From an uncultured Lachnospiraceae bacterium (GTDB lineage Bacteria > Bacillota > Clostridia > Lachnospirales > Lachnospiraceae), in contig CAKRJH010000003.1 in assembly GCA_934351255.1 (NCBI GenBank), positions 120,588-184,587 on the forward strand: a stretch of DNA of 64,000 nucleotides, given 5' to 3'. Made by a program: the position numbers and the translations under genes. Positions 5,148 to 40,800 of this stretch are shown one piece after another. Position 1 is the stretch's first letter. Every line of letters begins with the position of its first letter. Under the pieces are notes generated by a model, which worked only from the letters and a program-made list of their open reading frames with translations, searched no databases and was not told the DNA's origin.

Positions 5148-5171
5148 ATTCTGAGATATTCCTTTCTGTTA

Positions 5172-18110: not shown

Positions 18111-18905
18111 TTACAATGTGATAAGAGTGGAGAGGTCGTCGCGTCTGGCTACCTCCATCTCAAAAGGAAGCTTTTTCAGCCCCAGTTCCTCCCAGAGCTG
18201 GCATTTTACGGATTCATATGCCAGTTCCGGATAGTTGTTTTCCTTGGACAGATGTGCCAGGAAAGTATATTTCAGCGGACTGTCTGCCAGACGGCTGAGC
18301 AGTCTGCCGGAATCCTCATTGGAAAGATGCCCCCGGTCGCCCAGAATGCGCTGCTTGAGCGGATACGGATACGGACCGGTCTCCAGCATACTGATATCGT
18401 GGTTGGCCTCCAGGAACAGAACCTCACTGCCCATCAGATGATCGACAATGTAATCGTCAAATTTGCCAAGATCCGTCGCAATGCTCATCTTTTTCCTGCC
18501 ACAGTGCACACTGTAGCACACCGGATCCATCGCATCATGATAGGAATGAAACGGCAGAATGTCCAGACTGCCCATCGTAATCTCCTGATCCGGATACAAC
18601 TGGTAGAGATGATCCATGCGGATCACTCCTTTCTTGTCCTTCTGACGGATGGCATCCAGCGTCCCGGCCGTCGCATAGACCGGAATATCAAACATTTTGA
18701 CCAGCATCGGAATCCCCTGGATATGATCGCTGTGCTCATGTGTCACAAAAATGCCGTCCAGATCCTCGGGTCTGACTCCCAGTCTGGCCAGGCCATCCAC
18801 AATCCTCTTGCGGCTGATTCCGGCATCGATCAGGATATGATGTTTTCCGTCTCCCACATAGAGACAGTTTCCGCTGCTGCCACTGGCAAGGCTACAAATT
18901 CTCAT
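18111..18905 (-). CDS. MBL-fold metallo-hydrolase (YycJ/WalJ-like)
   Basis: MRICSLASGSSGNCLYV...HEHSDHIQG metallo-beta-lactamase motifs. The start was taken at ATG 18905. Confidence 0.8.
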   Translation of the reverse strand: MRICSLASGSSGNCLYVGDGKHHILIDAGISRKRIVDGLARLGVRPEDLDGIFVTHEHSDHIQGIPMLVKMFDIPVYATAGTLDAIRQKDKKGVIRMDHLYQLYPDQEITMGSLDILPFHSYHDAMDPVCYSVHCGRKKMSIATDLGKFDDYIVDHLMGSEVLFLEANHDISMLETGPYPYPLKQRILGDRGHLSNEDSGRLLSRLADSPLKYTFLAHLSKENNYPELAYESVKCQLWEELGLKKLPFEMEVARRDDLSTLITL

Positions 18906-24396: not shown

Positions 24397-24477
24397 ATTC
24401 TACCAGTTAGTATACCACAAAACCAAAGACCTTCCTATGCATTTTTCAAATAACACACAACAAATATAGAAGAAAAA

Positions 24478-24512
24478 AGCACCCTGTACAACAGAGTGCT
24501 TTTCACTGCATA
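24478..24512 (-). terminator. rho-independent terminator downstream of the antitoxin-like gene
   Basis: Minus strand: GCACTCTGttgtaCAGGGTGC followed by TTTTTT. Confidence 0.5.
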
Positions 24513-24526
24513 GCCTATGCTACTGT

Positions 24527-24547
24527 AAGCTGAAAAAGGGACTTGAA
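24527..24547. repeat. 21-bp direct repeat of the tRNA-Thr 3' end (att-like); the second copy is at 25323-25343
   Basis: aagctgaaaaagggacttgaa is identical at both positions. The flanking bases differ. Confidence 0.7.
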
Positions 24548-24568
24548 TATCTAATACGGTAATTCCCT

Positions 24569-24826
24569 TTAAACATTGACTGCCTCCCTCATTTTCGCAA
24601 ACATCTCCTCATGGGTATAGCGTTCTGTGATCTCTTCTGCCATCCTATCCGCAACATCTAATGCATCCTCAACAGATTCCGTCAGCTTTGAGTATGCCTC
24701 AATGCTCATGACTACCATTGATCCATATCCGTTTTTCGTCAAATATACAGGTTCACCGTTTTTTACAGTGGTCTCGATTTCCGTAAACTTATTTCTCAAA
24801 TCTGAAACAGGTCTAATCTCTATCAT
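24569..24826 (-). CDS. Phd/YefM-family antitoxin-like protein (orphan; no adjacent toxin gene seen)
   Basis: MIEIRPVSDLRNKFTEIETTVKNGEPVYLTKNGYGSMVVMSIEAYSKL. ATG 24826 has SD AAGGAGGAG 5 nt upstream. Confidence 0.55.
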   Translation of the reverse strand: MIEIRPVSDLRNKFTEIETTVKNGEPVYLTKNGYGSMVVMSIEAYSKLTESVEDALDVADRMAEEITERYTHEEMFAKMREAVNV

Positions 24827-25100
24827 AAGCTCCTCCTTATCATAATTTTGATAAAATTGTGCCATCCTTATTATATACAACTTATCGAAAATTAGCAACC
24901 GATGTTCAGGACAATCTCATAAAGAATCAACACTGTCAAAAAACGTCCCTCGACTTTAAGAAGAAAAAGACAGACCATATTTGCTATTTCTCAGTGTGAG
25001 CATTTCCTGTTCTGTAAACTTTCTGTTTGCCATAATTTCCTCCAATTCATTTTTATTGTAATATCAATCTGAATCGGAGTCAAAAAAGCGATTTTGTCCA

Positions 25101-25260
25101 AAATAAAGGGGTTCATCAAAACCATGTCCGAATTTAAGGGTTCCCTGTAAACTCATTGTCTAGATTTAAGGGTTTTCATTAAAACTTACTGTCCAATGGT
25201 AAGGGTTTTAAAAACTCAAACTGTCTAATCTATAGGGTACATTTTACTGCACTCTATCAG
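25101..25260. repeat. five iteron-like direct repeats of about 32 bp, consensus a.ttTAAGGGTTt....aaac..a.TGTCy
   Basis: Cores recur at about 25105, 25134, 25166, 25199 and 25231, each followed by ...TGTC(C/T). The block is non-coding and lies between the tRNA and the antitoxin-like gene. Confidence 0.55.
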
Positions 25261-25271
25261 GAAGTTGCCCT

Positions 25272-25316
25272 AAAATAATAAAAAGCCTTAGAAACACTGA
25301 ATTTCTAGGGCTTTTA
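25272..25316 (-). terminator. terminator hairpin immediately 3' of tRNA-Thr
   Basis: AAAAGCCCTAGAAA-loop-TTTCTAAGGCTTTT (one mismatch) followed by TTTTTATTATTTT on the minus strand. Confidence 0.45.
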
Positions 25317-25323
25317 TATCGAA

Positions 25324-25396
25324 GCTGAAAAAGGGACTTGAACCCTCGACCCCTTCATTACGAGTGAAGTGCTCTACCAACTGAGCTATTTCAGCA
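25324..25396 (-). tRNA. tRNA-Thr (anticodon CGT)
   Basis: The reverse complement folds as a cloverleaf: GCTGAAA-TA-GCTC-AGTTGGTA-GAGC-A-CTTCA-CTCGTAA-TGAAG-GGGTC-GAGGG-TTCAAGT-CCCTT-TTTCAGC-T. The anticodon loop has CGT. Confidence 0.85.
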
Positions 25397-25542
25397 TTTG
25401 TCAGTCTCGTACTACGAAACCGACAATCTAAAGTATACTTGGTATTCTCTTATTTGTCAATAAAGCAAATGGTTTTTCTTTGAATCCTGAAATGAAATTT
25501 TAAGTTGATTAACCATTTTACATTTTCCCATCACTATGTTAT

Positions 25543-25992
25543 TTAACATTTATCAAATGCTTCTTGAAAAATAACATTTAAAGCATCATAAAATGCATGC
25601 TCTTCTTTTTGATTTTTAGGTCCCAAAAGAGCTTTTCCAAGAACACCCATCTGCCGAGTTGATACTTCTCTTCTCCAGTTTTTGCTGTCTCCGATCATAT
25701 ATTGTGTCAAATAACAACCATTTTCATTATTGTCTAATGCAAACGCATATCCATAATAATCGTTCATATGCATCGTATTATATATTGTAATACATGGATA
25801 CACTCTTCCAAAAAGTCCTTTTTTCTTACATTCATCTTTGGTAATCGTTAAATTAATTCCATTCAGCTCTGCCAAGTCCGATATAATCTGTGCAAACAAA
25901 TCTAATGAAAAATCACCTCGACAAAATAATGGATTACCACAAATTCTTTCATCTAATACTTTAATCATTTTTTCTTTCGATGTATAAAACAT
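25543..25992 (-). CDS. hypothetical small protein, candidate immunity protein for the upstream nuclease
   Basis: 149-aa ORF directly downstream of the nuclease-like gene (toxin then immunity order). No family recognised. Confidence 0.4.
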   Translation of the reverse strand: MFYTSKEKMIKVLDERICGNPLFCRGDFSLDLFAQIISDLAELNGINLTITKDECKKKGLFGRVYPCITIYNTMHMNDYYGYAFALDNNENGCYLTQYMIGDSKNWRREVSTRQMGVLGKALLGPKNQKEEHAFYDALNVIFQEAFDKC

Positions 25993-26198
25993 CTGCTCCT
26001 TTCTACATAATATACAAGTTCAGGTTAGATAACGTATTTCCTCCTTTCTGTAGCTTTGTTAAATTTATCGTCTGTTCAAACGATATTTATCCTCATAAAA
26101 TGCCATTCCTATTTGGGCACTCTTACAAGCATCTGAATCTCAATATTCCGGATTTCCGTAAAGTAAATCCAATTCTGGTGAACAAACATCGCAATAAT

Positions 26199-26651
26199 TT
26201 ATATATCGTCTGCTTCTTCCGAAAGTTCAAACTCTTCTTCATTTAGATTTTCATTTGTTAAAGAAAAAACTTCTTCTTGTTTTTGACCTCTTTGATCTGT
26301 AATCGTATAGCGTCCCATTATTGCATGTGGACGCTTCGTATTATCCTGATAATACGGTTCAATTTCGACATGTACTTCATTACCGCGCTCTAATTCATCA
26401 GCCCAGGTGTTTTCAAATGTTTTATATGCACTCCGGTTTATAAAACGATTCTGTGCAATCAAATTATTTAATTCACCACTTCCACCAAAGCGGCTGCCGA
26501 TCAAATGTCCTCCATCGTCTGTATCACGCCGAAATTCACCTCCTGCTTTTAATTGAGCAGAAGTATCTCTTACCCCCTGTTCCAAGCGCAAATCTCCCTC
26601 CGCCAAAATAATTCTTCCCTCATCATCTTTTTCATATGAATATCCATTCAT
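26199..26651 (-). CDS. small HNH/EndoVII-superfamily (GH-E-like) nuclease toxin-domain protein. It may be the C-terminal part of a frameshift fusion with the upstream acidic ORF.
   Basis: ...DDGGHLIGSRFGGSGELNNLIAQNRFINRSAYKTFENTWADELE... resembles polymorphic-toxin nuclease domains. There is no SD before its ATG. The ORF continues in frame upstream for 12 codons, up to the in-frame stop at 26688-26690; that stretch includes the A-run. Confidence 0.5.
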   Translation of the reverse strand: MNGYSYEKDDEGRIILAEGDLRLEQGVRDTSAQLKAGGEFRRDTDDGGHLIGSRFGGSGELNNLIAQNRFINRSAYKTFENTWADELERGNEVHVEIEPYYQDNTKRPHAIMGRYTITDQRGQKQEEVFSLTNENLNEEEFELSEEADDI

Positions 26652-26662
26652 TTCATATGAAT

Positions 26663-26992
26663 TTATCTCGTCTTTTTTTTTACATACTCATAAACCTCTG
26701 GATCTTCATCTTCCCCCATCTCCTCCCACTCATCAAGCATTTGATTTAATTCATCAGAAATATCTTGTTCTTCATAATCTTCTCTGACATCGGGTTCCAT
26801 ATCTCCTACATCTTCATAGTCCTCTGAAATGTCGACTTCATCAGGGTAATATTCTGCAACTTCATCATAGTCAATATCACTTGCATCATACTCCACATCT
26901 TTAACACCAAGCATATCATCCAACACAGGGGTATCTGCAATATCACTACCGATATCATCAACATATTCCATATCACAACTCATATCATCCAT
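26663..26992 (-). CDS. highly acidic (about 45% D/E) small protein; its 3' end contains a dnaX-type -1 frameshift heptamer
   Basis: MDDMSCDMEYVDDIGSDIADTPVLDD...EDPEVYEYVKKKTR. ATG 26992 overlaps the ATPase stop by 8 nt. It ends with GTA AAA AAA AAG ACG AGA TAA. Confidence 0.5.
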   Translation of the reverse strand: MDDMSCDMEYVDDIGSDIADTPVLDDMLGVKDVEYDASDIDYDEVAEYYPDEVDISEDYEDVGDMEPDVREDYEEQDISDELNQMLDEWEEMGEDEDPEVYEYVKKKTR

Positions 26993-29648
26993 TTTTCTCA
27001 CCGCCTTTTACAAACAGAGTAATCAGTTTAATTTTTTCCTTATCATCCATTTTATATAATTTGTCATTCAACTGAAGTTTTCGAAACAATTTAATCCTTA
27101 CACAAATAATAAATTCCCGATCATTCCTATACCCCATCGCTGCTATTTTTTTTGCAAAAAGTGATGGAATACTTAAAAACACACCTCGAATTGTTCTTTT
27201 TTTATCTGCATTCTTATATAACGCATCAGCACAAACTGCATAGGCCTCGCTAGAAATATATTCTGCATCTGCCTTGATTCTAAAATTACAACCATCACCA
27301 TATAATCCACACAGATAACACTCTTTATATGGACATAACAATTTTTGCTTATTATCCCAGTAATGCATCAATTTTCTAATCAAATCATTGTCTATGCTTA
27401 ATTTAATTTGTTTCTTTTCTCTTATATCCTCCGTCATCACAAGCTGCGGTTTATTAAATGCTGTAGAATAAACATACGCTTCACCAACTTGCAAACCGGA
27501 GAGAGTTTCTTCCATTTCTGCATCCATATTGGTACTGTTAGCAATCAGTCTTCGTTCTGATGCCTCCACAAGCCGAAACATAATTTTTGTATCTGTGGCA
27601 GCAATGATATCATGAGTCACTTTTGACGGTGATTGATCCGCAATAATAACCCCCGTTCCATACGCCCTGATTTCTTTAAGCATCCTCTGTAATGAACTCA
27701 CTGTTGATGATCCTGCAGAAATATCCGAATTATCCCCTCTTCCTTCCGGAGATAACAGAACATGTGCCTCATCAATCATCAAAACATTTTTGAGTCTGGT
27801 TCCTATACTTGAACTATTTATCTTGGTATATGCGCAAACATCAACCAACAATAACGCCATTATTAATGCTTTTTGCTCCATGTTTTCTATGGAATTCAGT
27901 TCTATAATGGTCGGTCTTGAAATTAAATCTTCAATAGGTATGGTATTGATTGAATCATAAATATTGCTATTCATATCAATTAAATTCATCAATCGCATAA
28001 CACCTGCTGTTTCCAAATTTGATTTTACATCCTTGCTATAATTTGATGTTTGAAGCAATTTCTTAAACACTAAAATAAATTCGTGTAAACCAAATATAGT
28101 AACATCCTTGTCATCAGATGTACTATAATCCTTCCACCCGTATTTCGTATAGCATCGTTGAATGGCGTTTTGGAATAATAAATCTAATGGTGATGGCATA
28201 GAAAAAGCAGCCATAAATGCACTTACCAAAACAGGTTTATATTGCTCCACCGTAATTCCTTTCAATGGAATAAACGGATTAATAATAAATGGAGAAACAC
28301 TAACATTTCCCGGTGTAAAAATTTGTATATCCGGTAGTTGTTCTATTAATGCTCTATACTCTGTCTTAGTCGGTTCGACAATCAAAAACGGAATATTTCT
28401 TTCAGCAAATTGCAACATCAAATTAATAGAAAAGGTTGTTTTACCAGTTCCTGGCATGCCAACAATCAATACATGCTTTGACAGTATTCTTTCGTTACAA
28501 CCAATAGTAATCTTTTTCAGATCTGATGATATTAATTGTCCAAACTTTATATTAGAATCACTAATAATCTCTTCTTTTAACTGTTCTCTTTGCTTTTTAT
28601 ATCTGGTTTCCTCAATACCTGACATATTTCCATCGTAAACCGGCAAACGAAAAAAAGAAATCAATTCTTCGATCGTCATCATCAGCGGAAGTCGATACAA
28701 ATAATTGGAGAGTGGAATGTATTTACGAATTTTCATATTTCTATATTTGTACATTAATAAGGCACTTACGTTCCATATATAATTCGGAAATTCATTGATT
28801 ATGCTGCCAATACTTTTTGATATATCAATACAACTCGCTTCAAAACTACCGATATTACTGTCTCCACCTTTTAAAAGGCTGATAATTTTGGCAGATAAAA
28901 CAGTACAATCTTCTTTGGTTCCAAAAACCAATAAATTGGATAAAAACATAGGTGCATCCCGATTATCTTTATAATAAGATAATACTTCAAACGGTTCCTG
29001 AGCACATGAATCCTTTAAAAGTTGTCCATTAACAGATATTCCTTTTGATAATCCCTCCAGTTCAGAACAATGTTGTACTAATATTGCGATTTCATTCTCA
29101 TACAATTTTGTTGGTAGTATACTAAACGAAACACCGCAATTCTCCATCTGACTCAAAGTATTGATCAGAGATGCCAACCCCTCAGTATTATTTGATGGAA
29201 TAATCTCAGTATAATAAAATGGACAGACACTGGATGGATTAATAACCACCTTTTCCTTTTTTTCTACAGCATATACCAAACTTTTAACATCCTGTCTCCA
29301 AAGATCATCGAACGTTTGACGGCAATGTTCTGAATCTTGACAAAAATATCCAAAATCCGATACTACATTTTGAATGTTATTTATAAGCATTTTTACACGC
29401 GATACTGCTTCTGCGCTTACGTTGTCTATCTTTCGTACAACAATATAAATATGGATTTTCGAGGCATATGATTGATTATCAACTTTCTCGGTCAACCAAA
29501 TGATTTCATAAGCAACATTCTGATTATCAAGTCTATACAACTCTCCTAAAACACTATCAAAATCTGAAATTGTGTCTGAGAAAGTAACAATTTCCAGCAT
29601 ATCAACTGCCAAGAAACGATTGTCTGCTAATTCATACACCTGTACCAT
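26985..29648 (-). CDS. FtsK/HerA/VirB4-type P-loop ATPase (DUF87-like), 887 aa, with a Cys-rich C-terminus
   Basis: Walker A VGMPGTGKTT followed by FLIVEPTKTEY (HerA-like DP.GEY). Walker B VLMIDEAHVLL. IIADQSPSKV matches the TQRP-like motif. The C-terminus carries CPYKECYLCGLYGDGCNF. Confidence 0.7.
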   Translation of the reverse strand: MVQVYELADNRFLAVDMLEIVTFSDTISDFDSVLGELYRLDNQNVAYEIIWLTEKVDNQSYASKIHIYIVVRKIDNVSAEAVSRVKMLINNIQNVVSDFGYFCQDSEHCRQTFDDLWRQDVKSLVYAVEKKEKVVINPSSVCPFYYTEIIPSNNTEGLASLINTLSQMENCGVSFSILPTKLYENEIAILVQHCSELEGLSKGISVNGQLLKDSCAQEPFEVLSYYKDNRDAPMFLSNLLVFGTKEDCTVLSAKIISLLKGGDSNIGSFEASCIDISKSIGSIINEFPNYIWNVSALLMYKYRNMKIRKYIPLSNYLYRLPLMMTIEELISFFRLPVYDGNMSGIEETRYKKQREQLKEEIISDSNIKFGQLISSDLKKITIGCNERILSKHVLIVGMPGTGKTTFSINLMLQFAERNIPFLIVEPTKTEYRALIEQLPDIQIFTPGNVSVSPFIINPFIPLKGITVEQYKPVLVSAFMAAFSMPSPLDLLFQNAIQRCYTKYGWKDYSTSDDKDVTIFGLHEFILVFKKLLQTSNYSKDVKSNLETAGVMRLMNLIDMNSNIYDSINTIPIEDLISRPTIIELNSIENMEQKALIMALLLVDVCAYTKINSSSIGTRLKNVLMIDEAHVLLSPEGRGDNSDISAGSSTVSSLQRMLKEIRAYGTGVIIADQSPSKVTHDIIAATDTKIMFRLVEASERRLIANSTNMDAEMEETLSGLQVGEAYVYSTAFNKPQLVMTEDIREKKQIKLSIDNDLIRKLMHYWDNKQKLLCPYKECYLCGLYGDGCNFRIKADAEYISSEAYAVCADALYKNADKKRTIRGVFLSIPSLFAKKIAAMGYRNDREFIICVRIKLFRKLQLNDKLYKMDDKEKIKLITLFVKGGEKNG

Positions 29649-29654
29649 ACTTTA

Positions 29655-31358
29655 TTAACCTCTCAATCCCTGTATATAATCATCTAATTCGCTTATTTTA
29701 TTTACGCATGTTTCATACGTTTCTTTTTGTTTTTCCAAATCAGCAATAAAAGACTCAAGCACCTGCTTTTTTAAGGCAATAGCATCATAATTTTTTTGTT
29801 CTTTCTGCAACGCTGTCTTTTTTGTGAGCGCTTCAATATGCCAAACAACACCACGATAAAAAATTCCCCATAGAATAAAGATTACTACACCTGTGAACAC
29901 ACCATCCATTATGCTTTCTGTAACGCAGATATACAACACCCAAACTATACATGCTATAAATGACAATCTGAAATCATGAGGTTTCGATAATTTCTTTATT
30001 TTAGGTTTCAGTTCGTTCAGTTGCAACTGCAACATTTTAGTTTCTTCCCTTTTCTGGCTAATCTCCGGCGATACATCACTATATCCTGCAATCTGATCTT
30101 GATAATACTTTTTCTCCTCTTCTGCTTCACCTATTTTCAGTCGCTTATTCTGCTCCTGCAGTCTTCTTATATAGTCTTTCCACTCCTCCTGTATCATTTT
30201 CGCCTTATCTGGATTTGCAACAGTGATTGCATGTTGTACCATATTTTGCATCTCAGAAGCCAACTCATTGTCCAAATGGGTTAAACACTCACTTTGTACA
30301 TAGGGTACTCCCCACCATCCACGATAATCTTCCGGATACCTATTTTGCATTTCAACATATAATTCATATGCTTTTTGCGTTTCATTCAGTTTCATAAAAG
30401 TTTCCGCATTGGCTGCTAAACGGTTCACCTCAGATGTTTCTTCATTTGAGAGAATCCCGGTCTTTCTTTTGTTGTTTTGTATGACGTTGTTAACACCCTC
30501 TACCAGATATTCCACATAGCCTATTTTGTTCAGATCAAAAGATTGAAATGCCGAAAATTCCATTGGCATTTCATACGGAGACATATTTTTAAAGCAAGCA
30601 ATCAGTGTTTTGTCTTTATTTTCTTTCTTTAGTTCCAAAAAACGAGACCATTCATTCTTTACCCAGGTAGAATTATAATATTCCGTTTTAGTTCCCAGAA
30701 CAATCATTACCGTTGCACTCATCAATGCAGCATATATGTACGGTTCATACTCTTGTCCAAGCTTACTTTCCAATGATTTTTTTGCAAAAAATGTACGGTA
30801 TCCCGCCTGCTCTAACGAATTATAAATATTATATGCTATCATGCTGTCTTCTGTTGGCTCTCCATTTTCCATCTTATCTTTGTAACAGATAAAGACATCA
30901 TATGGCTTCTCTTCTTTTACAATTTTAATATACTTATTATAAATCTCGTCAATTTTGGTCGCTTCTTCTTGAAAAACATAAGATTCGTATATATCTGCAT
31001 TTTGCAACGCTGCTTTATAATCCGGATCATCAAAAATAGAATGATCCTGTATTCTATGACATGTCGGTTTCCTTTCTCCCCCAATATCATTTACATACTC
31101 AATACCATATCGGCTTAAAACCATTCCCCAATGAGCCGCTGAATCTTTATGATCTTCTCGAAGTAAATCATCAAAAACAGATATTGCACCATCAAAATCC
31201 AGATTTTGTCTTAAAAACGTAGCACGATTAAATAAATTTTCTATTTTGTCCTTATTTTGGGATACAATCATTTTTGAATCACAATACTTGCATGTTGCTA
31301 TTGAAGTACTTTCATCAAAATCGATATTCGCTCCACACACTTCACACTTTAATATCAT
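29655..31358 (-). CDS. zinc-ribbon TIR-domain protein with a coiled-coil region and two C-terminal TM helices
   Basis: N-terminal CEVCGAN...CKYCDS zinc ribbon. TIR core YDVFICYKD ... ALMSATVMIVLGTKTEYYNSTWVKNEWSRFLEL, in which WVKNE corresponds to the catalytic WxxxE. Two TM helices (LSFIACIVWVLYICV, GVVIFILWGIFY) lie near the C-terminus. SD GGGAGGT. Confidence 0.7.
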   Translation of the reverse strand: MILKCEVCGANIDFDESTSIATCKYCDSKMIVSQNKDKIENLFNRATFLRQNLDFDGAISVFDDLLREDHKDSAAHWGMVLSRYGIEYVNDIGGERKPTCHRIQDHSIFDDPDYKAALQNADIYESYVFQEEATKIDEIYNKYIKIVKEEKPYDVFICYKDKMENGEPTEDSMIAYNIYNSLEQAGYRTFFAKKSLESKLGQEYEPYIYAALMSATVMIVLGTKTEYYNSTWVKNEWSRFLELKKENKDKTLIACFKNMSPYEMPMEFSAFQSFDLNKIGYVEYLVEGVNNVIQNNKRKTGILSNEETSEVNRLAANAETFMKLNETQKAYELYVEMQNRYPEDYRGWWGVPYVQSECLTHLDNELASEMQNMVQHAITVANPDKAKMIQEEWKDYIRRLQEQNKRLKIGEAEEEKKYYQDQIAGYSDVSPEISQKREETKMLQLQLNELKPKIKKLSKPHDFRLSFIACIVWVLYICVTESIMDGVFTGVVIFILWGIFYRGVVWHIEALTKKTALQKEQKNYDAIALKKQVLESFIADLEKQKETYETCVNKISELDDYIQGLRG

Positions 31359-31373
31359 CAGTACCTCCCATTA

Positions 31374-32627
31374 TTATAAATCCTTTAATTTTTCTCGTTC
31401 AATTTTGAACTCCTCGTCAGTGTATAACCCTTCCTGCCAAGCCATTTTCAAACGTTTTAACCGTTTCATATACTCTTCATCATCAATATGATGCTTTTCA
31501 TTGCATGTATTTTCTACTGATGTTTTCAAATGAACCATTCCCGGTATATCATCACCATCCTCGTTGCCATCGCTAGGGGTTACATTTATATTTGCACTAT
31601 CCTTCTCTGTAATCGGTGTCATTAGACTACTTCCTTGAATTTCATTTCCAAAACTACTCATTGTCTGGCTAATAAACGGTGCCATCCCCATTCCCATTCC
31701 AACTCCCATCATGGGTGCACTACTTCTTCCAATGCCTTCATTAGCTGCCGCAATATCCATCACCCCAAATCCTCTTCGCTGATGTTCCGTCATATTAAGA
31801 GTTTTATTAGCAATACTTTGAGCGATTGCATCGCGTTTTTTTATTTCCTCATCTGCTATATGCTCCGTAATTCTGACATTTGCATTGATTGCAGCTTCTT
31901 TTATCCGATTTTTTTCTTCCATATTCAAGAAAGTATTTTGGGACCATAAATGTTTATACATTTGATAATTAGGATCAGCATCAGATGCATTGATATTATT
32001 CACGTATAGATCCACCAACGCTATTCCGTATTCAAACATATAACTGGAAATTGCCTTTTTAAGCTGTTCTGCAATTCCCATTGGATTACTCTCAAGATTA
32101 AAAATCGACGTATTTTCTTCTCTTAAAATTGCGGGAAGCCATTGTTTGATGCATGAAATGATGATTCCTTTAAAATATCTCATCATATGTTCCTGATCGA
32201 ATTGTGTTTCCGTCCCAACCAACTTCAATAATATTTTTTTTGAATCCACTACTTTGATACTCATTTCACCGGACGTGCTAATAGAAAATGGCGGCAAATT
32301 CATGCTTGGATCACTATATTTTATATCTCCAACACCCCAATTAATTGCCATTTGCTCCGTCTTGTTTACAAAATATACTTCACAATGAAATGGTGATATT
32401 CCATCACTCGGCAAATTGATCAGTTTGTTTAAAATAGGTATATTTTTAGTCTGTAACTTATATGATCCTGGTTGAAAGATATCTGTCAACTGACCATCTT
32501 TAAAAAAAGCTGCCTCTTGTGTTTCATGTACAATTAAGGTTGAATGAGTATTAAAATCTTCTCCTGGAAACTTCCATACAAATGTTCTATTATTTATTTC
32601 ACCCTTTATTATGTCAAATATTTGCAT
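31374..32627 (-). CDS. SPFH/band-7 domain protein (YdjI-like) with a C-terminal SHOCT-like domain
   Basis: MQIFDIIKGEINNRTFVWKFPGEDFNTHSTLIVHETQEAAFFKDGQLTDIFQPGSYKLQTKNIPILNKL is the YdjI-type SPFH N-terminus. The C-terminal EEYMKRLKRLKMAWQEGLYTDEEFKIEREKL is SHOCT-like. ATG 32627 has SD GGGAGGG. Confidence 0.7.
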   Translation of the reverse strand: MQIFDIIKGEINNRTFVWKFPGEDFNTHSTLIVHETQEAAFFKDGQLTDIFQPGSYKLQTKNIPILNKLINLPSDGISPFHCEVYFVNKTEQMAINWGVGDIKYSDPSMNLPPFSISTSGEMSIKVVDSKKILLKLVGTETQFDQEHMMRYFKGIIISCIKQWLPAILREENTSIFNLESNPMGIAEQLKKAISSYMFEYGIALVDLYVNNINASDADPNYQMYKHLWSQNTFLNMEEKNRIKEAAINANVRITEHIADEEIKKRDAIAQSIANKTLNMTEHQRRGFGVMDIAAANEGIGRSSAPMMGVGMGMGMAPFISQTMSSFGNEIQGSSLMTPITEKDSANINVTPSDGNEDGDDIPGMVHLKTSVENTCNEKHHIDDEEYMKRLKRLKMAWQEGLYTDEEFKIEREKLKDL

Positions 32628-32637
32628 ATGTCCCTCC

Positions 32638-33228
32638 CTAATAGTTTTCACTATCAACAGTTAATTTTTCAATTCTTGATCCATTGATATCATGATTCTC
32701 TGTCATAAATATTGTAATCATCTCAGAATCTGCTTTCGACTCAATAAAGACTTTCCCATCCGCTCCATTCGGATCATTAGCCGTTTCCGATTTAAAACTT
32801 AATGATGCAATAAAATCATCCATTGATGTATACCCATTAAGTTGTAAAAAAAGTTCAATTACCTCTCCTGAATAATCAGAATCTACGATATCCCCAAAAT
32901 TGGATAACTCTACGGTTGTGCTTTTCATTGCTCCTCCACTTCTTTGAGCCAGACAAGAAACAATGTCTGTTGTTATGCTACTTAATATCTCTCTATCCAT
33001 ATACATATTATTCAATTCATCATACTCTTCATTGTCACCATAAATGTCATTATAAAGATTACTATTTATTTGTTGGTTTGCAATGTTTTGTCCTGAATCA
33101 TTGGTTTGAGTAGATCTACGAGATATAATGATTCCTGTTATTACAATTGCAGTGCACAATAAAATTGCTGCTCCTAAAATAGCAAGTACAATAATTTTAA
33201 TATTATTTTTCTCTTTCATTTTTTCCAT
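32638..33228 (-). CDS. membrane-anchored hypothetical protein (N-terminal TM then hydrophilic domain), first gene of the island operon
   Basis: MEKMKEKNNIKIIVLAILGAAILLCTAIVITGIIIS, then an Asn/Asp-rich soluble region. Confidence 0.45.
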   Translation of the reverse strand: MEKMKEKNNIKIIVLAILGAAILLCTAIVITGIIISRRSTQTNDSGQNIANQQINSNLYNDIYGDNEEYDELNNMYMDREILSSITTDIVSCLAQRSGGAMKSTTVELSNFGDIVDSDYSGEVIELFLQLNGYTSMDDFIASLSFKSETANDPNGADGKVFIESKADSEMITIFMTENHDINGSRIEKLTVDSENY

Positions 33229-33343
33229 TTCCTTTCTATTCTTTGTATCTTTATATTTAAAACCACATAATGATTATTATGGTTTTAGAAACAAAAAAAC
33301 TCCCCATAAAAACAATAGGAAGAAAATGAAAAAGCCAAATTAG

Positions 33344-33372
33344 TTGCATAAAACATTTAAAAATGGTATAAT
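33344..33372 (+). promoter_or_regulatory. near-consensus sigma-A promoter (TTGCAT, 17 bp, extended TGgTATAAT) pointing antisense into the integrase gene
   Basis: Read directly from the sequence. No sizeable + strand ORF follows. Confidence 0.4.
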
Positions 33373-33571
33373 TTTACTAATCTGATTCAACAGAATGGAG
33401 TTCGATTTGACACATTCTGACAACGGATTATATGTAATTTTACTTCATGATATAAACTATAGAATGACAAACGTCAAATTATATAAGAGTTTATGTGCGA
33501 AGTAATTTCCAATGATTTTTATCAAATTACATGTGTCTTTGAATTGCAAAGCCTTGTAAATATCGTACTTA

Positions 33572-34471
33572 TCAGCAAAAACACTGCGTTCTATCCATAT
33601 AATAATCATTATGTAGATTTCCATCATCCACAAGCAAATTCATGTTCTCAAGTTGTTTTCGATGTTCATTATAGGATTCTTTAAGATAAATTCTTGTTGT
33701 CTCTATACTACTATGTCCCAAAATATCCGCAAGTTTAGCAATGTCCCTATATAAGGAATAAAATGTTCTTGCAAACAAATGACGCAGATTATGTGGGAAT
33801 ACCTTATCCTGGTCTATTCCGGCATCACTACAAAGCTTTTTCATTTCACGCCATATCCATGTGCGGTCAACTGCATTTCCTCTTGATGTTTGAAACACCA
33901 TGCCTTTCTTTATACTCTGTACTCGAATATAGCACAGCAAACGAACCTGTAAATCTCTGGGAATTAGTACCTGCCGCTCTTTTCCCTTATTATATATAGT
34001 GACCATCCCCTTTTTTACAGACGTAATCGTAATTGCAGATAACTCACTCACTCGAATCCCTGTTGCACATATTGTTTGTATAATCATACCCAGTCGAACT
34101 TTTCCGCTATCCATAGCTGTTTTCACTAACTTCATATATTCCTTCTTTGATAATTCTCTGTTTTCCGGCACAAACACTTCTTTTTGCAATTTAAATGTTT
34201 TGACTCTAAGTTCATACCATCCTAAAAACTCGAAAAAACGATTTGCTGCAACCAAAAAAGAATTAATACTGCTTGTTTTATAATCTGCATTCATACGCAA
34301 ATGTTCTTTATACTGAATCACGAGCATTTTATCCAATTCTCTATTATCCGCAAATTCCACTAACTTTTTTATATCACACATATATTTTTGTATAGTAGCC
34401 TTACTTTTTTCTTGTTCATACAAATATATTTTATAATCTTCTAACATTTTCTCTGTAATAATCTTTTTCAT
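33572..34471 (-). CDS. tyrosine site-specific recombinase/integrase (XerC/XerD-like)
   Basis: Catalytic-motif candidates ATGIRVSEL (R), HNLRH (H-x-x-R) and HSSIETTRIYL (H...Y). ATG 34471 has SD GGAGGT 8 nt upstream. AT-rich like the rest of the island. Confidence 0.8.
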   Translation of the reverse strand: MKKIITEKMLEDYKIYLYEQEKSKATIQKYMCDIKKLVEFADNRELDKMLVIQYKEHLRMNADYKTSSINSFLVAANRFFEFLGWYELRVKTFKLQKEVFVPENRELSKKEYMKLVKTAMDSGKVRLGMIIQTICATGIRVSELSAITITSVKKGMVTIYNKGKERQVLIPRDLQVRLLCYIRVQSIKKGMVFQTSRGNAVDRTWIWREMKKLCSDAGIDQDKVFPHNLRHLFARTFYSLYRDIAKLADILGHSSIETTRIYLKESYNEHRKQLENMNLLVDDGNLHNDYYMDRTQCFC

Positions 34472-34701
34472 AATGTAGTACCTCCAGTCCCCTAAAAATG
34501 GGAAAAAAATAACCATTTGAAACTTAATCCAAATGGCTTATGTAAATTTACTAATATTTTATTAAAAGCAGATAGATATGCAAGTCCATTTTATGAATAA
34601 TAAATACGAAGGAACACTAGCAAGCCTTTAACGTTGTTACTCATCATTTACACCTTCTATACGATAAGAAATCTTTCCACCAATAAGGCCAGACACATTT
34701 C

Positions 34702-34741
34702 ATTTAAAAGTTAGGGGACAATTTCCCTAACTTTTAAATGA
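34702..34741. repeat. perfect 16-bp inverted repeat with an 8-nt spacer (CATTTAAAAGTTAGGG-gacaattt-CCCTAACTTTTAAATG) at the island right boundary
   Basis: Seen in the sequence. It is not followed by a T-run on either strand, so it is not a typical terminator. Confidence 0.5.
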
Positions 34742-34751
34742 AAGCTTATTA

Positions 34752-34790
34752 AAATCACGCACAGTTATTTTATTCTGTGCGTGATTTTTC
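34752..34790. terminator. bidirectional rho-independent terminator (AAAATCACGCACAG-loop-CTGTGCGTGATTTT)
   Basis: 14-bp stem with T/A runs on both sides, 3' of the GH95 gene. Confidence 0.55.
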
Positions 34791-34815
34791 AGCATATTTT
34801 ACCTTATTGCAGAAC

Positions 34816-37810: not shown

Positions 37811-40800
37811 CTAACCGATAATCTTCACACCAGACGGCTGTCCTTTTTTCCGAAGCAGCTTGGTATATTTTTTCAGTCTGCTCTTTGGAACACGGATCAC
37901 CGCTTTCTTATGAATTTTGGTAAACGCTTTCTTGCCGACCTTTTTGAGTGTGGTCGTCTTGATCACGATTTTCTTCAGTTTGGTGCATTTTGCAAATGCC
38001 TTTGGACCGATCTCGCTGACAGTATACTTCACACCCTGTGCTTTTACTGTCTTTGGAATGGTCACCTTCTTGACCGTTTTGGAGGTCGTTCCCACGACAG
38101 ATACCTCTGCCTTGGCCTGGTCTGTCACCTGGTACTTCAGCCCTCTCACGGTGAATGTCAGCGCCGTCGGTACCGGTGCCGGTGCAGGAGTAACCTCTCC
38201 ACCCGGAGCCGGTGCCGGGATCTGAGAAGGTGCTGCACCCGGCGTCTGGGTCGGCACTGCCGTTGGCACTTCTGTCGGTGCCACGGTAGGTTCGATGGTT
38301 GGTTCCTGACTCGGTTCAGCACTTGGAACAATCGTCGGCTCCACGGTAGGCACCTCCGTAGGTTCTGCCGTTGGCTCCTGTGTCGGTGCTACATAATCCG
38401 GATCCACTGCCCAGAGCGCATACACTGTGGTATCTGCCTCGATTCCTCTGGTAAAATCAAACACCTTACGGAACGTATTGCTGGTATACCATCCCTGGAA
38501 CAGATATCCCTCACGGGTCGGAGCCTGCGGCTCATTTGCCATGTATCCCTCATAGATATCCTGATCCTCGACGCTGCTGCCTCCCATCGTCTGGAAAGAG
38601 ACACGGTACTGATCTTTCTCGACCCATCCCGCATACAGGTCTGTGTTGTCCTGGATCTCCGTTGCAAAATCAAACTGTTCGGTGGTTTCCTCATCGGTAT
38701 ACCATCCGGTAAAGTTATAATTCTTTCTGGTGATCTTCTCCGGCTCATCCGCAGTGCGTCCTGCCTCGACAGCCTGTGTCTCAACCTCATCACCGCCATT
38801 GCTGTGGAAGTACACATTGTATCCATTCAGCGGAACAAACTTGTTACCATGCAGTTTTGCATATGCATGGGCGGTAGAGTCAACGTATCCATAGATAGTC
38901 ACATTAGACGGGATCGCAACATATGGTTTCACAGAAGATGCATACACCAAGGTGTGAGTCTCGTCCGCAAGACTGCTTGATAACACCGGCTCCTTGATGA
39001 CCATATCCGGATTGTAGATATAGACTTTCTTGACACCGCTGGCACGGAGTGCTTCCACATCCATGCTCTCCACGTTCTCCGGAATATCCAGTGTTTTCAC
39101 ATTTCTGGTTCCCAGGAAGGCTGCTCTGCCAATGGTCTTTACCGTCTCCGGAATCTCAATGCTGCGGATCTGTTTACATTTCAGCAGCATTCCCTGACTG
39201 ATCACATCCAGTTTTCCTCCCAGCGTGATCTCCTCCGCCATGGAATCGTAGAAATATGAATAGTTGTAATCTACCTGATCCACTGCAGGTGCAAACTCAA
39301 TGCTCTGCAGTTCCGGACTCTGGTCATTCCAGAAGATAGAATCCCAGTTCTCCATGTTCGCTGCAGCATGCACGGAAATCTCCTGCAGGCTGGTCATATA
39401 CTGGAAGCTGCCGCCGGAGATCGATGTCAGGCTCTCCGGAAGTGAAACTCGTGTTACATTTCTCTGCCCATAGAACGCTCCCGGGTCAACACTCTCGATT
39501 CCCTCCGGAAGGATCACTTCCGAAATACCGCCAATACGCTCACTTGGATCAAATGGTACGACCGTTTCGCTGGTTGACATTGCTCCATATGCACCCTTCA
39601 GGTTAAATGCCGCAGCGCCGATTCTGGTCAGGTTCTTCAGCCGGCTAAAGTCCACATCAATCCTGTCGTCTGAAATAAATGCGCCATCTTCGATAACCCG
39701 TAAGCTTTCCGGCAAAGTGAGCTCCTGCAGGTTGTAATTAAATGCGAAAGCATTTGCTGCAATCGTCTCAATGCCCTCTCCCACGGTAACTCGCTCGGCG
39801 GTCGGACACAGGTTCATGAAATAGGAATTCTTCTCAATCGAGTTTACCACACCCTCTGTCTTTTCAAACACAAAGTCTGTCACACAGGTTTCCTCAGGGT
39901 ATCGCTCCTTCCATTCAGCGGCACTGGTCACCGGATCGTCCTGCTGTTTTTCGGGTTTGATCAGGCCCGATTCATTGTTGATGCCCAGTATATTGGTAAT
40001 CGTCTGGCTTGGACCATATTCTCCCTGAAAATCACCCTGCACTGTGATTCGTGTCAGTTTCGGACATTTTCCAAACGCATAGGTACCTATCCTCGTGACA
40101 CTGACAGGAATCGTCAGATCCTCAACATTCGTTCCATGGAATGCTGCGGCACCGATCTTCTGCACACCGTCCAGATCCAGACTGGTCAGCCCGGTACATC
40201 CCTCGAAGGCAGCTACTCCGATCTGCTGGACATTGCCAAGTCCTTTTATCTCGGTCAGATTCCTGCAGTGCAGGAACGTCTGGAATCCCAATTCAACATA
40301 CGGCTTCGTTCCGGTCTGATCCGGATAGAGAGTTACACTCTTCAGACTCTGACAATCTGCAAACAGGGATGGAGAAGAACTCTGTCCAAATGCATTTGCA
40401 GGCAGCTTCACCGTCTGGATCGGATCCGGAATGCTCAGTGTCCGATAACCTCCAGACTCTCCTGAGCCGGAGAGAGCATCTCCAAGTGCCGGATTCATAG
40501 CCGCCACTCTCCAGCCAAAGGCCTCATTCTGGATACGGGTCAGTTTACTGTTCTTGGTTGCCTCCACGGTTTTCAGGCTGGTACAGCCATTGAAACTGCG
40601 GAACCCGATATCTTCTACGGAATCCGGTATATTGACCGAAGTCAGGCTGGAACAGTGGTCAAAGATACCTGCAATAAATTTCGTAGCCTTACAGCCTTCC
40701 TCAGAATCGATGGTCTTCAGACTCTCACAATAGCTGAACGTCTGAACTGAATAGTCTGACACGCCAAACCTCTCCAGAGAAGCCGGGAGGGTCAGACTGG

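Follow-up and report, generated by a model that had tools for sequence, protein, structure and literature searches.

In Escherichia coli, the fim switch consists of the recombinase genes fimB and fimE and a 314-bp invertible element, fimS, whose repeats are 9 bp long. Invertible promoters with adjacent recombinases are well known from fim, from RecV of C. difficile and from Bacteroides (PMC7446863, PMC9286219). Site-specific recombinases have also been linked to defence: small serine recombinases have been used as markers of defence loci, and inversion has been suggested as a possible regulator of defence expression (PMC13552941). In the same work, tyrosine recombinase baits were unreliable across phyla, with very few homologues in Bacillota (PMC13552941). 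The locus described here lies in a 64,000-nucleotide stretch of the genome of an uncultured Lachnospiraceae bacterium (contig CAKRJH010000003.1 of assembly GCA_934351255.1), which is referred to below, at its full length, as the window. It comprises a tyrosine recombinase gene, a short segment bounded by inverted repeats and a seven-gene operon that resembles known defence systems, all beside a gene for tRNA-Thr. What is new is a conserved, portable tyrosine-recombinase/switch cassette that precedes several defence-like operons in gut Clostridia, one of these operons belonging to an uncharacterised SPFH-TIR-HerA-like family. The explanation that is considered probable is that three pieces of DNA, each acquired horizontally, make up the tract as a mosaic about a tRNA-Thr gene that is native to the host, and that the recombinase acts as the promoter invertase of the defence-like operon.

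The cassette occupies 1.2 kb (33259–34486) and consists of the recombinase gene and a segment of ~350 bp bounded by an inverted repeat. Loci recovered for comparison are designated by L numbers.

33572–34471, minus strand: tyrosine recombinase of 299 amino acids, counted from MKKIIT, in an open reading frame (ORF) extendable to 34516 (Pfam Phage_integrase, 3.6e-22)
33599–33620: proximal arm of the inverted repeat, within the last recombinase codons (core at 33599–33614, minus strand)
33281–33598: invertible segment, 318 bp between the arms, aligning over its full length with the switches of L100 and L101 and with the reverse complement of that of L108
33259–33280: distal arm of the inverted repeat, with the perfect 16-nt core ACATAATGATTATTAT at 33265–33280 (plus strand)

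The two arms are 22 nt long and complementary at 20 of 22 positions, including the whole of the core. With up to two mismatches allowed, the core would be expected 0.05 times per window, and only one of 100 shuffled sequences reached two matches. Among the fetched loci, 22 carry the recombinase and keep both arms, and in each of them the core occurs as exactly one inverted pair. Across loci the proximal arm lies either 2–6 nt after the last recombinase codons or inside them. The first cargo start codon follows the distal arm by 31 nt in the window, by 25–45 nt in most other loci and by ~95 nt in L122. A metagenome scan for the proximal junction added 11 further recombinase loci. In lineages whose recombinases are 77–79% identical to that of the window, the switch is 157–259 nt long and its interior has diverged, while the 16-nt core is unchanged.

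Comparison of these loci indicates that the segment has been turned around. The L108-type switch (L108–L111, L125 and L140) aligns over its full length to the switches of the window and L100 as a reverse complement only, with breakpoints exactly at the 16-nt cores, and BLAST comparisons between the two orientation groups yielded opposite-strand matches only. The orientation of the window is shared by L100–L107, L126, L133, L136 and L138. Of these, L126 carries L108-like cargo behind a switch in the window-like orientation. Since the L108-type switch is reversed at the cores and L126 is window-like, inversion between the repeats has happened. Three features of an invertible promoter are found here, namely an intergenic segment between inverted repeats upstream of a gene, an adjacent recombinase gene and both orientations between homologous loci.

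The best conserved block of the switch is a predicted promoter of the form TTGCAT-17-TGnTATAAT. In the window it is composed of TTGCAT (33344–33349), a 17-nt spacer and TGG TATAAT (33367–33372), on the plus strand. This block faces the cargo in L108. In the window it faces the recombinase gene, away from the operon, and the window and all 19 contigs of the same species are therefore read as OFF. Other promoter consensus matches were not above shuffle expectation. A terminator-like hairpin is also located inside the segment, at 33300–33322.

The junctions expected of the flipped orientation are TCTACATAATGATTATTAT followed by GGTTTTAGAAAC, and GGAAATCTACATAATGATTATTAT abutting GGTTTTAGAAAC together with AAAACCACATAATGATTATTAT abutting ATGGATAGAACG. 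Two IMG/VR matches to the junction pattern of the cassette were set aside. One was new and due to chance, being placed inside a large ORF, and the other duplicated a metagenome locus without a recombinase match. The exact proteins of the recombinase, with a C-terminal tail that varies with the orientation of the segment, were encountered in 11 plus 8 contigs. The recombinase cluster was looked through for a flipped copy of the window type, and the 15 members listed, of 40 read, included none; its 283-amino-acid members end before the repeat and are hence uninformative on orientation. In a separate locus, L118 (~4796–6456 in re-oriented coordinates), the proximal repeat is followed by unrelated DNA with a 411-amino-acid ORF, and the distal repeat is absent. 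The switch of L118 appears to be disrupted, and the ORF may encode a transposase.

The arrangement resembles the fim and RecV switches in that a tyrosine recombinase gene lies directly upstream and in the same direction, a promoter element of ~320–350 bp bounded by inverted repeats precedes the operon, and both orientations exist. It differs from fim in several respects. The recombinase is a Xer-fold protein of ~300 amino acids with an N-terminal SAM-like domain, the core is 16 nt long, the regulated genes form a defence-like operon instead of a surface structure, and the cassette is portable, with orientations that are seen between loci only and with placements before at least four different operons, including one inside an integrative and conjugative element (ICE). 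The loci of PMC13552941 show the same recurrent association between a gene for a site-specific recombinase and defence operons of various kinds. Their recombinases, however, are small serine enzymes, while the one described here is a tyrosine recombinase from Clostridia that comes with a defined invertible element.

The N-terminal SAM-like domain of the recombinase is recognized by Pfam, and its catalytic residues are intact. A tyrosine recombinase at the end of the block far from the tRNA had been reported from inspection of the DNA in an earlier note, and the Phage_integrase match of the ORF at 33572–34516, with its SAM-like N-terminus, agrees with this. The same note called the enzyme XerC/D-like, which holds at the level of the fold (2.8e-19 to XerD in the Protein Data Bank, PDB, entry 1a0p) and does not extend to orthology. 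NCBIfam scores were 108 bits against a cut-off of 330 for XerD, 103 against 335 for XerC and 144.5 against 220 for XerA, and the score was also far below the XerS cut-off. With scores so far under the Xer cut-offs, the protein is not a dimer-resolution orthologue. Its match to the FimB/FimE invertase models is likewise weak (21 bits in NCBIfam against a cut-off of 221), and no separate arm-binding domain was detected by domain search.

Clustering at 90% identity places the recombinase among 87 proteins, the majority of which have 283 amino acids. These shorter relatives have their stop codon immediately before the proximal arm. Protein identity to relatives is 94–95% where DNA identity is ~89%, and this excess, together with the unchanged 16-nt core, is a sign of selection. 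More distant homologues, each a lone gene among housekeeping genes, are encoded by Monoglobus pectinilyticus (51%) and Pusillibacter faecalis (42%). In both, a 22–26-nt inverted repeat (96–100% complementary) overlaps the stop codon with its near arm and has its far arm 252–268 nt downstream. The gene beyond the far arm is of the S-layer-homology type in Pusillibacter and hypothetical in Monoglobus. In these homologues and in the window, the segment inside the repeat measures 250–320 bp and lies directly ahead of the next gene, and in homologues of 42–95% identity, as in the window, the recombinase ORF ends in or at the proximal arm. Phage relatives are distant (39% or less), matches in "plasmid" records reach at most 51% and are apparently chromosomal, and a scan of IMG/VR proteins found no relative. 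Taken together, the recombinase is most likely the invertase of the adjacent switch, in the manner of fim, rather than an island integrase.

The cassette is found with other cargo, and the cargo without the cassette. Contigs encoding recombinases that are 93–95% identical, with an identical repeat core, show a gap of ~415–445 nt and then different operons. The operon of L100–L107 encodes a TPR/zinc-ribbon protein, a 220-amino-acid protein, a YidD-like protein, a DUF87 ATPase, a hyper-acidic protein of 713 amino acids, a DUF7675 protein and an SPFH protein. Its ATPase is 36% identical to that of the window, and the locus adjoins phage-like repressor genes. In L108–L111 the cassette lies inside a conjugative element (with relaxase, coupling protein, TrbL, PrgI and SpoVG), right after spoVG. 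Further variants, with recombinases of 77–92% identity, occur in L122, L126 and L129. In all, a control module whose recombinases are 77–95% identical is re-used before at least four different operons, most of them (three) defence-like and one carried as ICE cargo. Nucleotide identity of the cassette is 84–89% to loci with other cargo and ~77% to the L122/L129 lineage, and the homology is limited to 34486 to ~33259 (its ends falling at ~33251–33263).

The L108-type operon (L108–L111, L125, L126 and L129) encodes a 91-amino-acid transmembrane protein, a pVip-like radical SAM protein, an FHA protein and a second radical SAM protein, and continues with a DolB/PDC-M37B-like AAA ATPase, a PP2C phosphatase-family protein and a protein kinase of 1342 amino acids. 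It is a second uncharacterised conflict-type system.

The whole operon of the window is also present in another genome context, represented by L088–L090, where the ATPase copy is 93% identical. There it is flanked by a glutamate symporter gene and other genes, a recombinase and a tRNA both being absent, and is likewise AT-rich (GC 0.31–0.35 against 0.40–0.50 in its flanks). The DNA homology between the window and L088 (~91.6%) is confined to 33255–25541, its limits being a point 27 nt ahead of the first start codon and the last stop codon. It begins, at 33255, 4 nt from the distal repeat. The presence of the operon alone in L088–L090 and of the cassette alone with other cargo elsewhere shows the tract to be a mosaic. 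In L088 (13518–14921), as in L089 and L090, a PqqD-like gene, a radical-SAM gene and a 41-amino-acid ORF form an insertion behind the nuclease gene and ahead of the last gene. Together they look like a module for ribosomally synthesized and post-translationally modified peptides (RiPPs).

The break in homology at the distal repeat also suits another explanation, in which the recombinase and repeat form an integron-like docking platform, operons are exchanged at the distal repeat and inversion is a side reaction. At least four unrelated operons start 25–45 nt after this repeat (~95 nt in L122), homology between loci breaks exactly there, and the recombinase-less copy of the operon begins 4 nt from it. 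A second repeat or att-like site is absent from the downstream ends of the cargo in the 22 recombinase-bearing loci with both arms, no circular form of the cassette is known, and the layout (recombinase, inverted repeat, promoter, inverted repeat, operon) is that of known invertible promoters. Docking of this kind is regarded as very improbable indeed.

The composition of the tract deviates strongly from that of its surroundings. GC content is 0.339 over 24400–34815 and 0.509 in the rest of the window. In 1-kb windows it is 0.47–0.55 outside the tract and goes down to 0.31–0.37 between ~25000 and ~35000; at 200-bp resolution the fall starts at ~24400 and the recovery is at ~34800. The GC3 of eight island genes is 0.21–0.31, versus 0.51–0.70 for six flanking genes. 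In 5-kb windows, the dinucleotide-signature distance to the rest of the window (×10^-3) is 84–110 inside the tract (starts 25001–30001) and mostly 15–60 outside it, with a maximum of 72. The abrupt drop in composition against GC-rich flanks that was noticed earlier is thereby borne out by all three statistics. The placement of all cargo on one strand holds too: the island ORFs are all on the minus strand, like the neighbouring host genes. The limits that had been given for the block, ~9.4 kb ending at the tRNA, are accurate at the edge near 34800. At the other end, the low-GC tract is present on both sides of tRNA-Thr(CGT), passing through it for ~900 bp further on its 3′ side to ~24400. Read in order, the terminators of the GH95 gene and a unique spacer of 329 bp come first. 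They are followed by the cassette (1.2 kb), the operon (7.7 kb), a stretch of ~80 bp and the tRNA with its promoter, with a remnant of 795 bp in last place.

34487–34815: locus-specific spacer of 329 bp between the GH95 gene and the cassette

No homology to other cassette loci was found in the spacer. It contains perfect hairpins at 34698–34743 (19-nt stem) and 34751–34788 (14-nt stem) and a terminator-like hairpin at 34511–34538.

In the earlier note the 9.4-kb block was taken to be an island with the recombinase as its integrase. Spelled out, this would be a classical integrative element that the distal recombinase inserts and excises at the 5′ side of tRNA-Thr. The foreign, horizontally acquired character of the DNA stands, as the operon occurs elsewhere at 92% nucleotide identity and is AT-rich there too; the integrase role is not supported. 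The strong compositional deviation, the sharp edges and the intact tyrosine recombinase at one end of the block are what such an island would display, and the 3′ end of the adjacent tRNA behaves as an attachment site in IMG/VR predicted viral contigs. In addition, one short metagenome contig stops at 34701, near the block edge and within the first spacer hairpin, which could be a palindrome assembly artefact or a hint of population heterogeneity at the edge. Set against these points, no direct repeat of 14 nt or more joins 25396–25541 to 34487–34815, and the tRNA-derived repeat of the tract bounds 24548–25321 only, so that no att repeats are found at the two ends of the block. Nor does the enzyme travel with the cargo: L088–L090 have the cargo alone, L100–L111 the recombinase with other cargo, and homology breaks at the inverted repeat. 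The lack of flanking direct repeats and the independent travel of enzyme and cargo are among the reasons why the island-integrase reading is unsupported. The recognizable recombinase sites are an inverted pair 334 bp apart, an arrangement that favours inversion over excision, and the protein is Xer-like, ~300 amino acids long, with no separate arm-binding domain detected. Finally, the block is present, colinear at 99.9–100%, in each of the 19 metagenome contigs in which the flanking GH95 protein is identical. An integrative island is accordingly considered quite unlikely. A recombinase at the edge of an AT-rich block is open to mis-annotation as the integrase of a genomic island, and the informative feature here is the inverted repeats, not the tRNA.

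The operon itself consists of seven genes over 7.7 kb (25541–33255).

32638–33228, minus strand: first cargo gene, 196 amino acids with an N-terminal transmembrane helix, from the ORF and its translation; conserved in L088–L090
31374–32657, minus strand: SPFH/Band-7 protein, 427 amino acids as ORF and 417 as called (Pfam Band_7_1, 7.3e-38)
29655–31358, minus strand: zinc-ribbon, helical/TPR, TIR protein, 567 amino acids (Pfam TIR_2, 1.8e-13)
26985–29648, minus strand: HerA/FtsK-superfamily ATPase (DUF87), 887 amino acids (Pfam DUF87, 1.6e-9; PADLOC mad8/HerA models)
26663–27001, minus strand: hyper-acidic protein, 112 amino acids, 40% Asp+Glu, isoelectric point (pI) 4.05, its start overlapping the end of the ATPase gene; position conserved in five contexts
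26199–26651, minus strand: stand-alone DNA/RNA non-specific endonuclease domain protein, 150 amino acids (Pfam Endonuclea_NS_2, 1e-28)
25543–25992, minus strand: last cargo gene, 149 amino acids, ~91% nucleotide identity in L088–L090

The TIR protein has an N-terminal zinc ribbon (CxxC...CxxC), helical repeats and two C-terminal hydrophobic helices, which by inspection are transmembrane helices. The ATPase has a unique N-terminal region of ~350 amino acids, and the PADLOC HerA matches cover part of its ATPase region only. No family match was found in domain searches for the 196-amino-acid membrane protein or the 112-amino-acid protein, and none for the 149-amino-acid protein in Pfam, NCBIfam, PHROGs or PADLOC; the last is possibly an inhibitor or immunity partner of the nuclease. 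Overall, five of the seven cargo genes are without a family-level match in PADLOC, PHROGs and NCBIfam. A Type I restriction-modification shufflon served by the recombinase was also entertained, and was dropped once the cargo domains were identified.

Homologues of the ATPase are numerous, with 568 detected. Among those listed, the ones below 50% identity are nearly all full length (~880–920 amino acids, 42–47% identity), and the list includes entries annotated as Bacteroidales, Spirochaetia and Lachnospiraceae. Six ATPase neighbourhoods were compared (the window, L088, L091, L100, L141 and L143), which represent several distinct metagenomic lineages and one genome annotated as Spirochaetia. 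An SPFH protein accompanies the ATPase in all six, a hyper-acidic protein (20–42% Asp+Glu, pI ~4) is encoded directly after it, again in six of six, and an orthologous zinc-ribbon-TIR protein is present in four of the six. The accessory genes differ, and include Hsp70, TatD or NS-type nucleases and ankyrin repeats. The conserved core consists of SPFH, zinc-ribbon-TIR, a HerA-like ATPase of ~890 amino acids and a small hyper-acidic protein. The motifs YD(V/I)FICYK and WVKNEWSRF are invariant in the four TIR orthologues, down to 32% identity. The Glu of WVKNEW is presumably the catalytic residue. The hyper-acidic proteins of ~112–118 amino acids have 36–42% Asp+Glu and a conserved basic C-terminal tail (...V-K/L-K/V-K/T-T/W-R), and their counterpart in L100 is an acidic repeat protein of 713 amino acids. 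These proteins might be DNA mimics or regulators.

The nearest PDB match of the ATPase is the archaeal HerA 4d2i (1e-12), followed by HerA and related ATP-binding chains, all of these presumably being the HerAs of Sir2-HerA and DUF4297-HerA defence complexes. The operon shares with these complexes, also known as Nezha in the case of Sir2-HerA, a HerA-superfamily ATPase beside a nuclease and an effector domain of the NAD+-targeting type. Unlike theirs, the ATPase is ~890 amino acids long and reaches 54 bits with HerA_antiphage against an NCBIfam cut-off of 800, the effector is a TIR domain, and SPFH and hyper-acidic proteins are obligatory partners. The operon does not combine a HerA of the anti-phage clade with Sir2 or DUF4297, and is not assigned to either family. 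Sir2-HerA anti-phage systems are described in PMC11514289 and PMC13434337.

Like Thoeris and other bacterial TIR defence systems, the operon encodes a TIR_2 domain, in which the glutamate of a W-x-x-x-E motif is invariant. The protein weakly matches the type III Thoeris protein ThcB4 (5.5e-6, 25 bits against a cut-off of 220). Unlike Thoeris, the TIR domain is fused to a zinc ribbon, helical repeats and transmembrane helices and is linked to ATPase and SPFH genes. No ThsA-like (SLOG/Macro-sensing) or other signal-activated effector was recognized among the operon genes, and the operon is not placed within Thoeris. One systematic survey of TIR proteins, checked for these partners, makes no mention of a TIR protein linked to SPFH and ATPase genes.

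By analogy with these systems, the operon may be a membrane-associated phage defence of the abortive-infection type, in which the ATPase assembly would sense or gate and the TIR domain (through NAD+ cleavage) and the nuclease would be the effectors. The operon family is uncharacterised; with 568 detected ATPase homologues in several metagenomic lineages and one Spirochaetia genome, it is a concrete candidate defence system.

Nucleases of the Endonuclea_NS_2 family are common in secreted polymorphic toxins, and the operon could instead be an inter-bacterial toxin or secretion module, with an FtsK/HerA-like motor exporting TIR or nuclease toxins and an immunity protein encoded downstream. The small unknown protein after the nuclease and the membrane association of several components would suit such a module, as would a weak match of the ATPase P-loop to EssC of the type VII secretion system. 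However, the nuclease is a bare 150-amino-acid domain with no space for a delivery or LXG/WXG domain, no secretion-apparatus genes were found in domain searches, and the nearest matches of the ATPase are HerA proteins, in keeping with its PADLOC HerA matches. The sister cassettes, moreover, carry defence-like genes (pVip-like and DolB/PDC-M37B-like). The probability of toxin export is held to be very low.

In the explanation favoured here, the three pieces of the mosaic would have the following roles. The first, at 24548–25321, would be an element inserted in the 3′ end of tRNA-Thr that has kept both att cores, an antitoxin gene, iterons and a terminator and has lost its integrase. The second, the operon at 25541–33255, would provide abortive-infection-type defence. 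In the third, the portable cassette at 33259–34486, the recombinase would flip the promoter element between the ACATAATGATTATTAT cores, as in fim. In one orientation the conserved promoter would read into the operon (ON), and in the other back into the recombinase gene (OFF). On this account flipping would be ongoing in the strain, the conserved promoter would be the functional one, and the defence function and its mechanism would be as argued from related systems.

Several observations weigh against this explanation. Each locus type shows a single orientation (19 of 19 contigs of the window type and 11 of 11 of the L100 type in orientation A, and six of six of the L108 type in orientation B), and the inversion could be an old, fixed event. 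The recombinase ORF of the window reads through the proximal repeat, unlike those of its 283-amino-acid relatives. On the minus strand, a promoter-like site that is not conserved (33456 to 33427, 10 of 12 matches) faces the operon in the present orientation, and the OFF assignment may be leaky or wrong; the promoter assignment draws on consensus and conservation. PADLOC has no model that matches the SPFH or TIR protein, the defence role being argued by analogy, and no paper describing the operon was found in a literature search on the SPFH-TIR-HerA combination. An empty site was not found either: every contig with the exact flanking GH95 or PK-like protein carries the block. In the GTDB genome set of 185,579 species the best GH95 match is 74% identical and without synteny, while GH95 relatives at 93% and 88% lie in unrelated contexts where homology ends with the gene. 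Without an empty site, the insertion junctions are not definable by comparison.

Some of these points would be accommodated if the cassette were a fossil, left over together with the operon as cargo of a conjugative or phage-like element that recombined into the chromosome, with inversion rare and historical and expression now fixed. The uniform orientation within each locus type, over 36 assembled contigs, and the shift of the recombinase stop codon past the repeat in the window can be understood in this way, and close relatives of the cassette occur in an ICE and beside phage-like repressor genes. Yet the recombinase retains its catalytic residues and is more conserved as protein than as DNA, and the 16-nt core is perfect on both arms in every lineage, including those with 77% identical recombinases, despite the diverged interiors. 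The orientation counts come from assembled contigs, which report the majority state only, and uniformity is therefore expected even of an active switch, which weakens the case for a fossil. It is judged unlikely.

If the switch of the favoured explanation is active, it would provide a clear example, from Clostridia, of an invertible promoter that controls a multi-gene defence operon of the TIR/HerA type. It would also bear on the trade-off in gut bacteria between the cost of abortive infection and phage pressure, and would imply that assembled metagenomes under-report the expression states of defence genes. A wider proposal can be put forward tentatively, with its truth rather doubtful at present: that the portable cassette circulates among gut Clostridia in ICEs, phage-like elements and chromosomes, that it sets defence operons stochastically ON or OFF and may act as a docking point for operon swaps, given that the cargo junctions all fall at the distal repeat, and that the operon of the window is an undescribed, widespread, membrane-associated abortive-infection system.

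The remaining piece of the mosaic lies at the tRNA gene.

25432–25460, minus strand: promoter of the tRNA itself, TTGACA-17-TATACT (11 of 12 matches by promoter scan)
25323–25395, minus strand: tRNA-Thr, anticodon CGT (ARAGORN; the single tRNA found)
25322–25342: direct-repeat copy 2, the 3′ end of the intact tRNA-Thr (attL-like core)
25095–25237, plus strand: five phased iterons, TGTCY-N6-WARGG, spaced 30–33 nt (~three helical turns) and adjoining the tRNA 3′ end
24569–24826, minus strand: orphan Phd/YefM-type antitoxin gene, 85 amino acids, in an ORF extendable to 24898 (Pfam PhdYeFM_antitox, 2e-11)
24527–24547: direct-repeat copy 1, AAGCTGAAAAAGGGACTTGAA, a displaced 3′ fragment of tRNA-Thr (attR-like)
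24474–24504, minus strand: terminator hairpin, a 14-pair stem followed by a T run (terminator scan)

As had been noted earlier, the 9.4-kb block abuts the 5′ end of the tRNA, which is on the minus strand. The statement that there is no flanking direct repeat is right for the ends of that block and overlooked a perfect 21-nt direct repeat, AAGCTGAAAAAGGGACTTGAA, of the tRNA 3′ end. This repeat has two matches only in the window, even with up to three mismatches, and none of 100 shuffled sequences gave two. The terminator at 24474–24504 begins ~20 nt beyond the displaced copy, and a strong terminator in that position matches the expectation for the original end of the tRNA gene. It is probably the original tRNA-Thr terminator. 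A replacement terminator-like hairpin, seen by inspection, adjoins the tRNA between the repeat copies. This is the standard signature of a decayed element, and 24548–25321 would be what is left of one that was once integrated into the 3′ end of tRNA-Thr and has since lost its integrase.

The iteron pattern has five matches in the window, all five in 25095–25237, against a chance expectation of 0.76, and none of 100 shuffles gave five. The iterons could be putative arm-type, accessory or Xis sites of the lost integrative element, or operators for the Phd-like protein. The antitoxin scores 36 bits with the NCBIfam model phd_fam (cut-off 20.8). No cognate toxin gene was found inside the 795-bp remnant; the repeat copy at 24527–24547 starts 21 nt after the antitoxin stop codon, which leaves no room for one, and the antitoxin-then-toxin order of a type II toxin-antitoxin system is not seen at 24569–24826.

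Reading the whole 10.3-kb low-GC tract as a single element with an internal tRNA was rejected on three grounds: one crossover in a 21-bp core leaves an intact tRNA beside host DNA, the tRNA has its own promoter, and the cargo homology stops at 25541. Given the promoter at 25432–25460, at least ~65 bp on the 5′ side of the tRNA are native host DNA.

Elements flanked by att sites and devoid of an integrase are reportedly called CIMEs, a concept said to stem from work on ICESt1 of Streptococcus thermophilus. The 795-bp segment is like CIME-type remnants in its flanking direct repeat of a tRNA 3′ end, its lack of a recombinase and its iterons and replacement terminator. It differs from typical CIMEs in being much smaller and in that its parental element was not identified, the IMG/VR elements at the same tRNA sharing the tRNA sequence only. 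Four predicted viral contigs of IMG/VR contain the 21-nt core, three of them within tRNA-Thr(CGT). This tRNA is at or near a contig end in L145 and L146; the fourth contig, L148, has no more than 43 nt from the 3′ part of the tRNA. Such contigs mark the tRNA 3′ end as an attachment site in use. Repeats of the TTTGACTAAATTTT type lie beside the core in L145 and L148. The tRNA-Thr thus seems to serve more than one element, and these probably differ in their integrases. For one metagenome contig from this species the end falls exactly at 25322, which is weak evidence that the junction is polymorphic.

Two neighbouring genes may be mentioned. A surface-type protein of 1570 amino acids with LRR_5 and Flg_new domains is encoded at 37811–42523, two genes upstream of the block. 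In L141, the member of the SPFH/TIR/ATPase family adjoins a large Flg_new_2 protein and a GH95-domain gene, and the link to the LRR_5/Flg_new neighbour in the window may be a coincidence. On the other side of the tRNA, at ~18111–18905 (15492–16286 in L087), lies a gene for a protein of the metallo-beta-lactamase fold with a precomputed match to the Anti-Pycsar Apyc1 family. The neighbourhood of this gene is a housekeeping one, and the match is probably a generic similarity of the metallo-beta-lactamase/RNase type.

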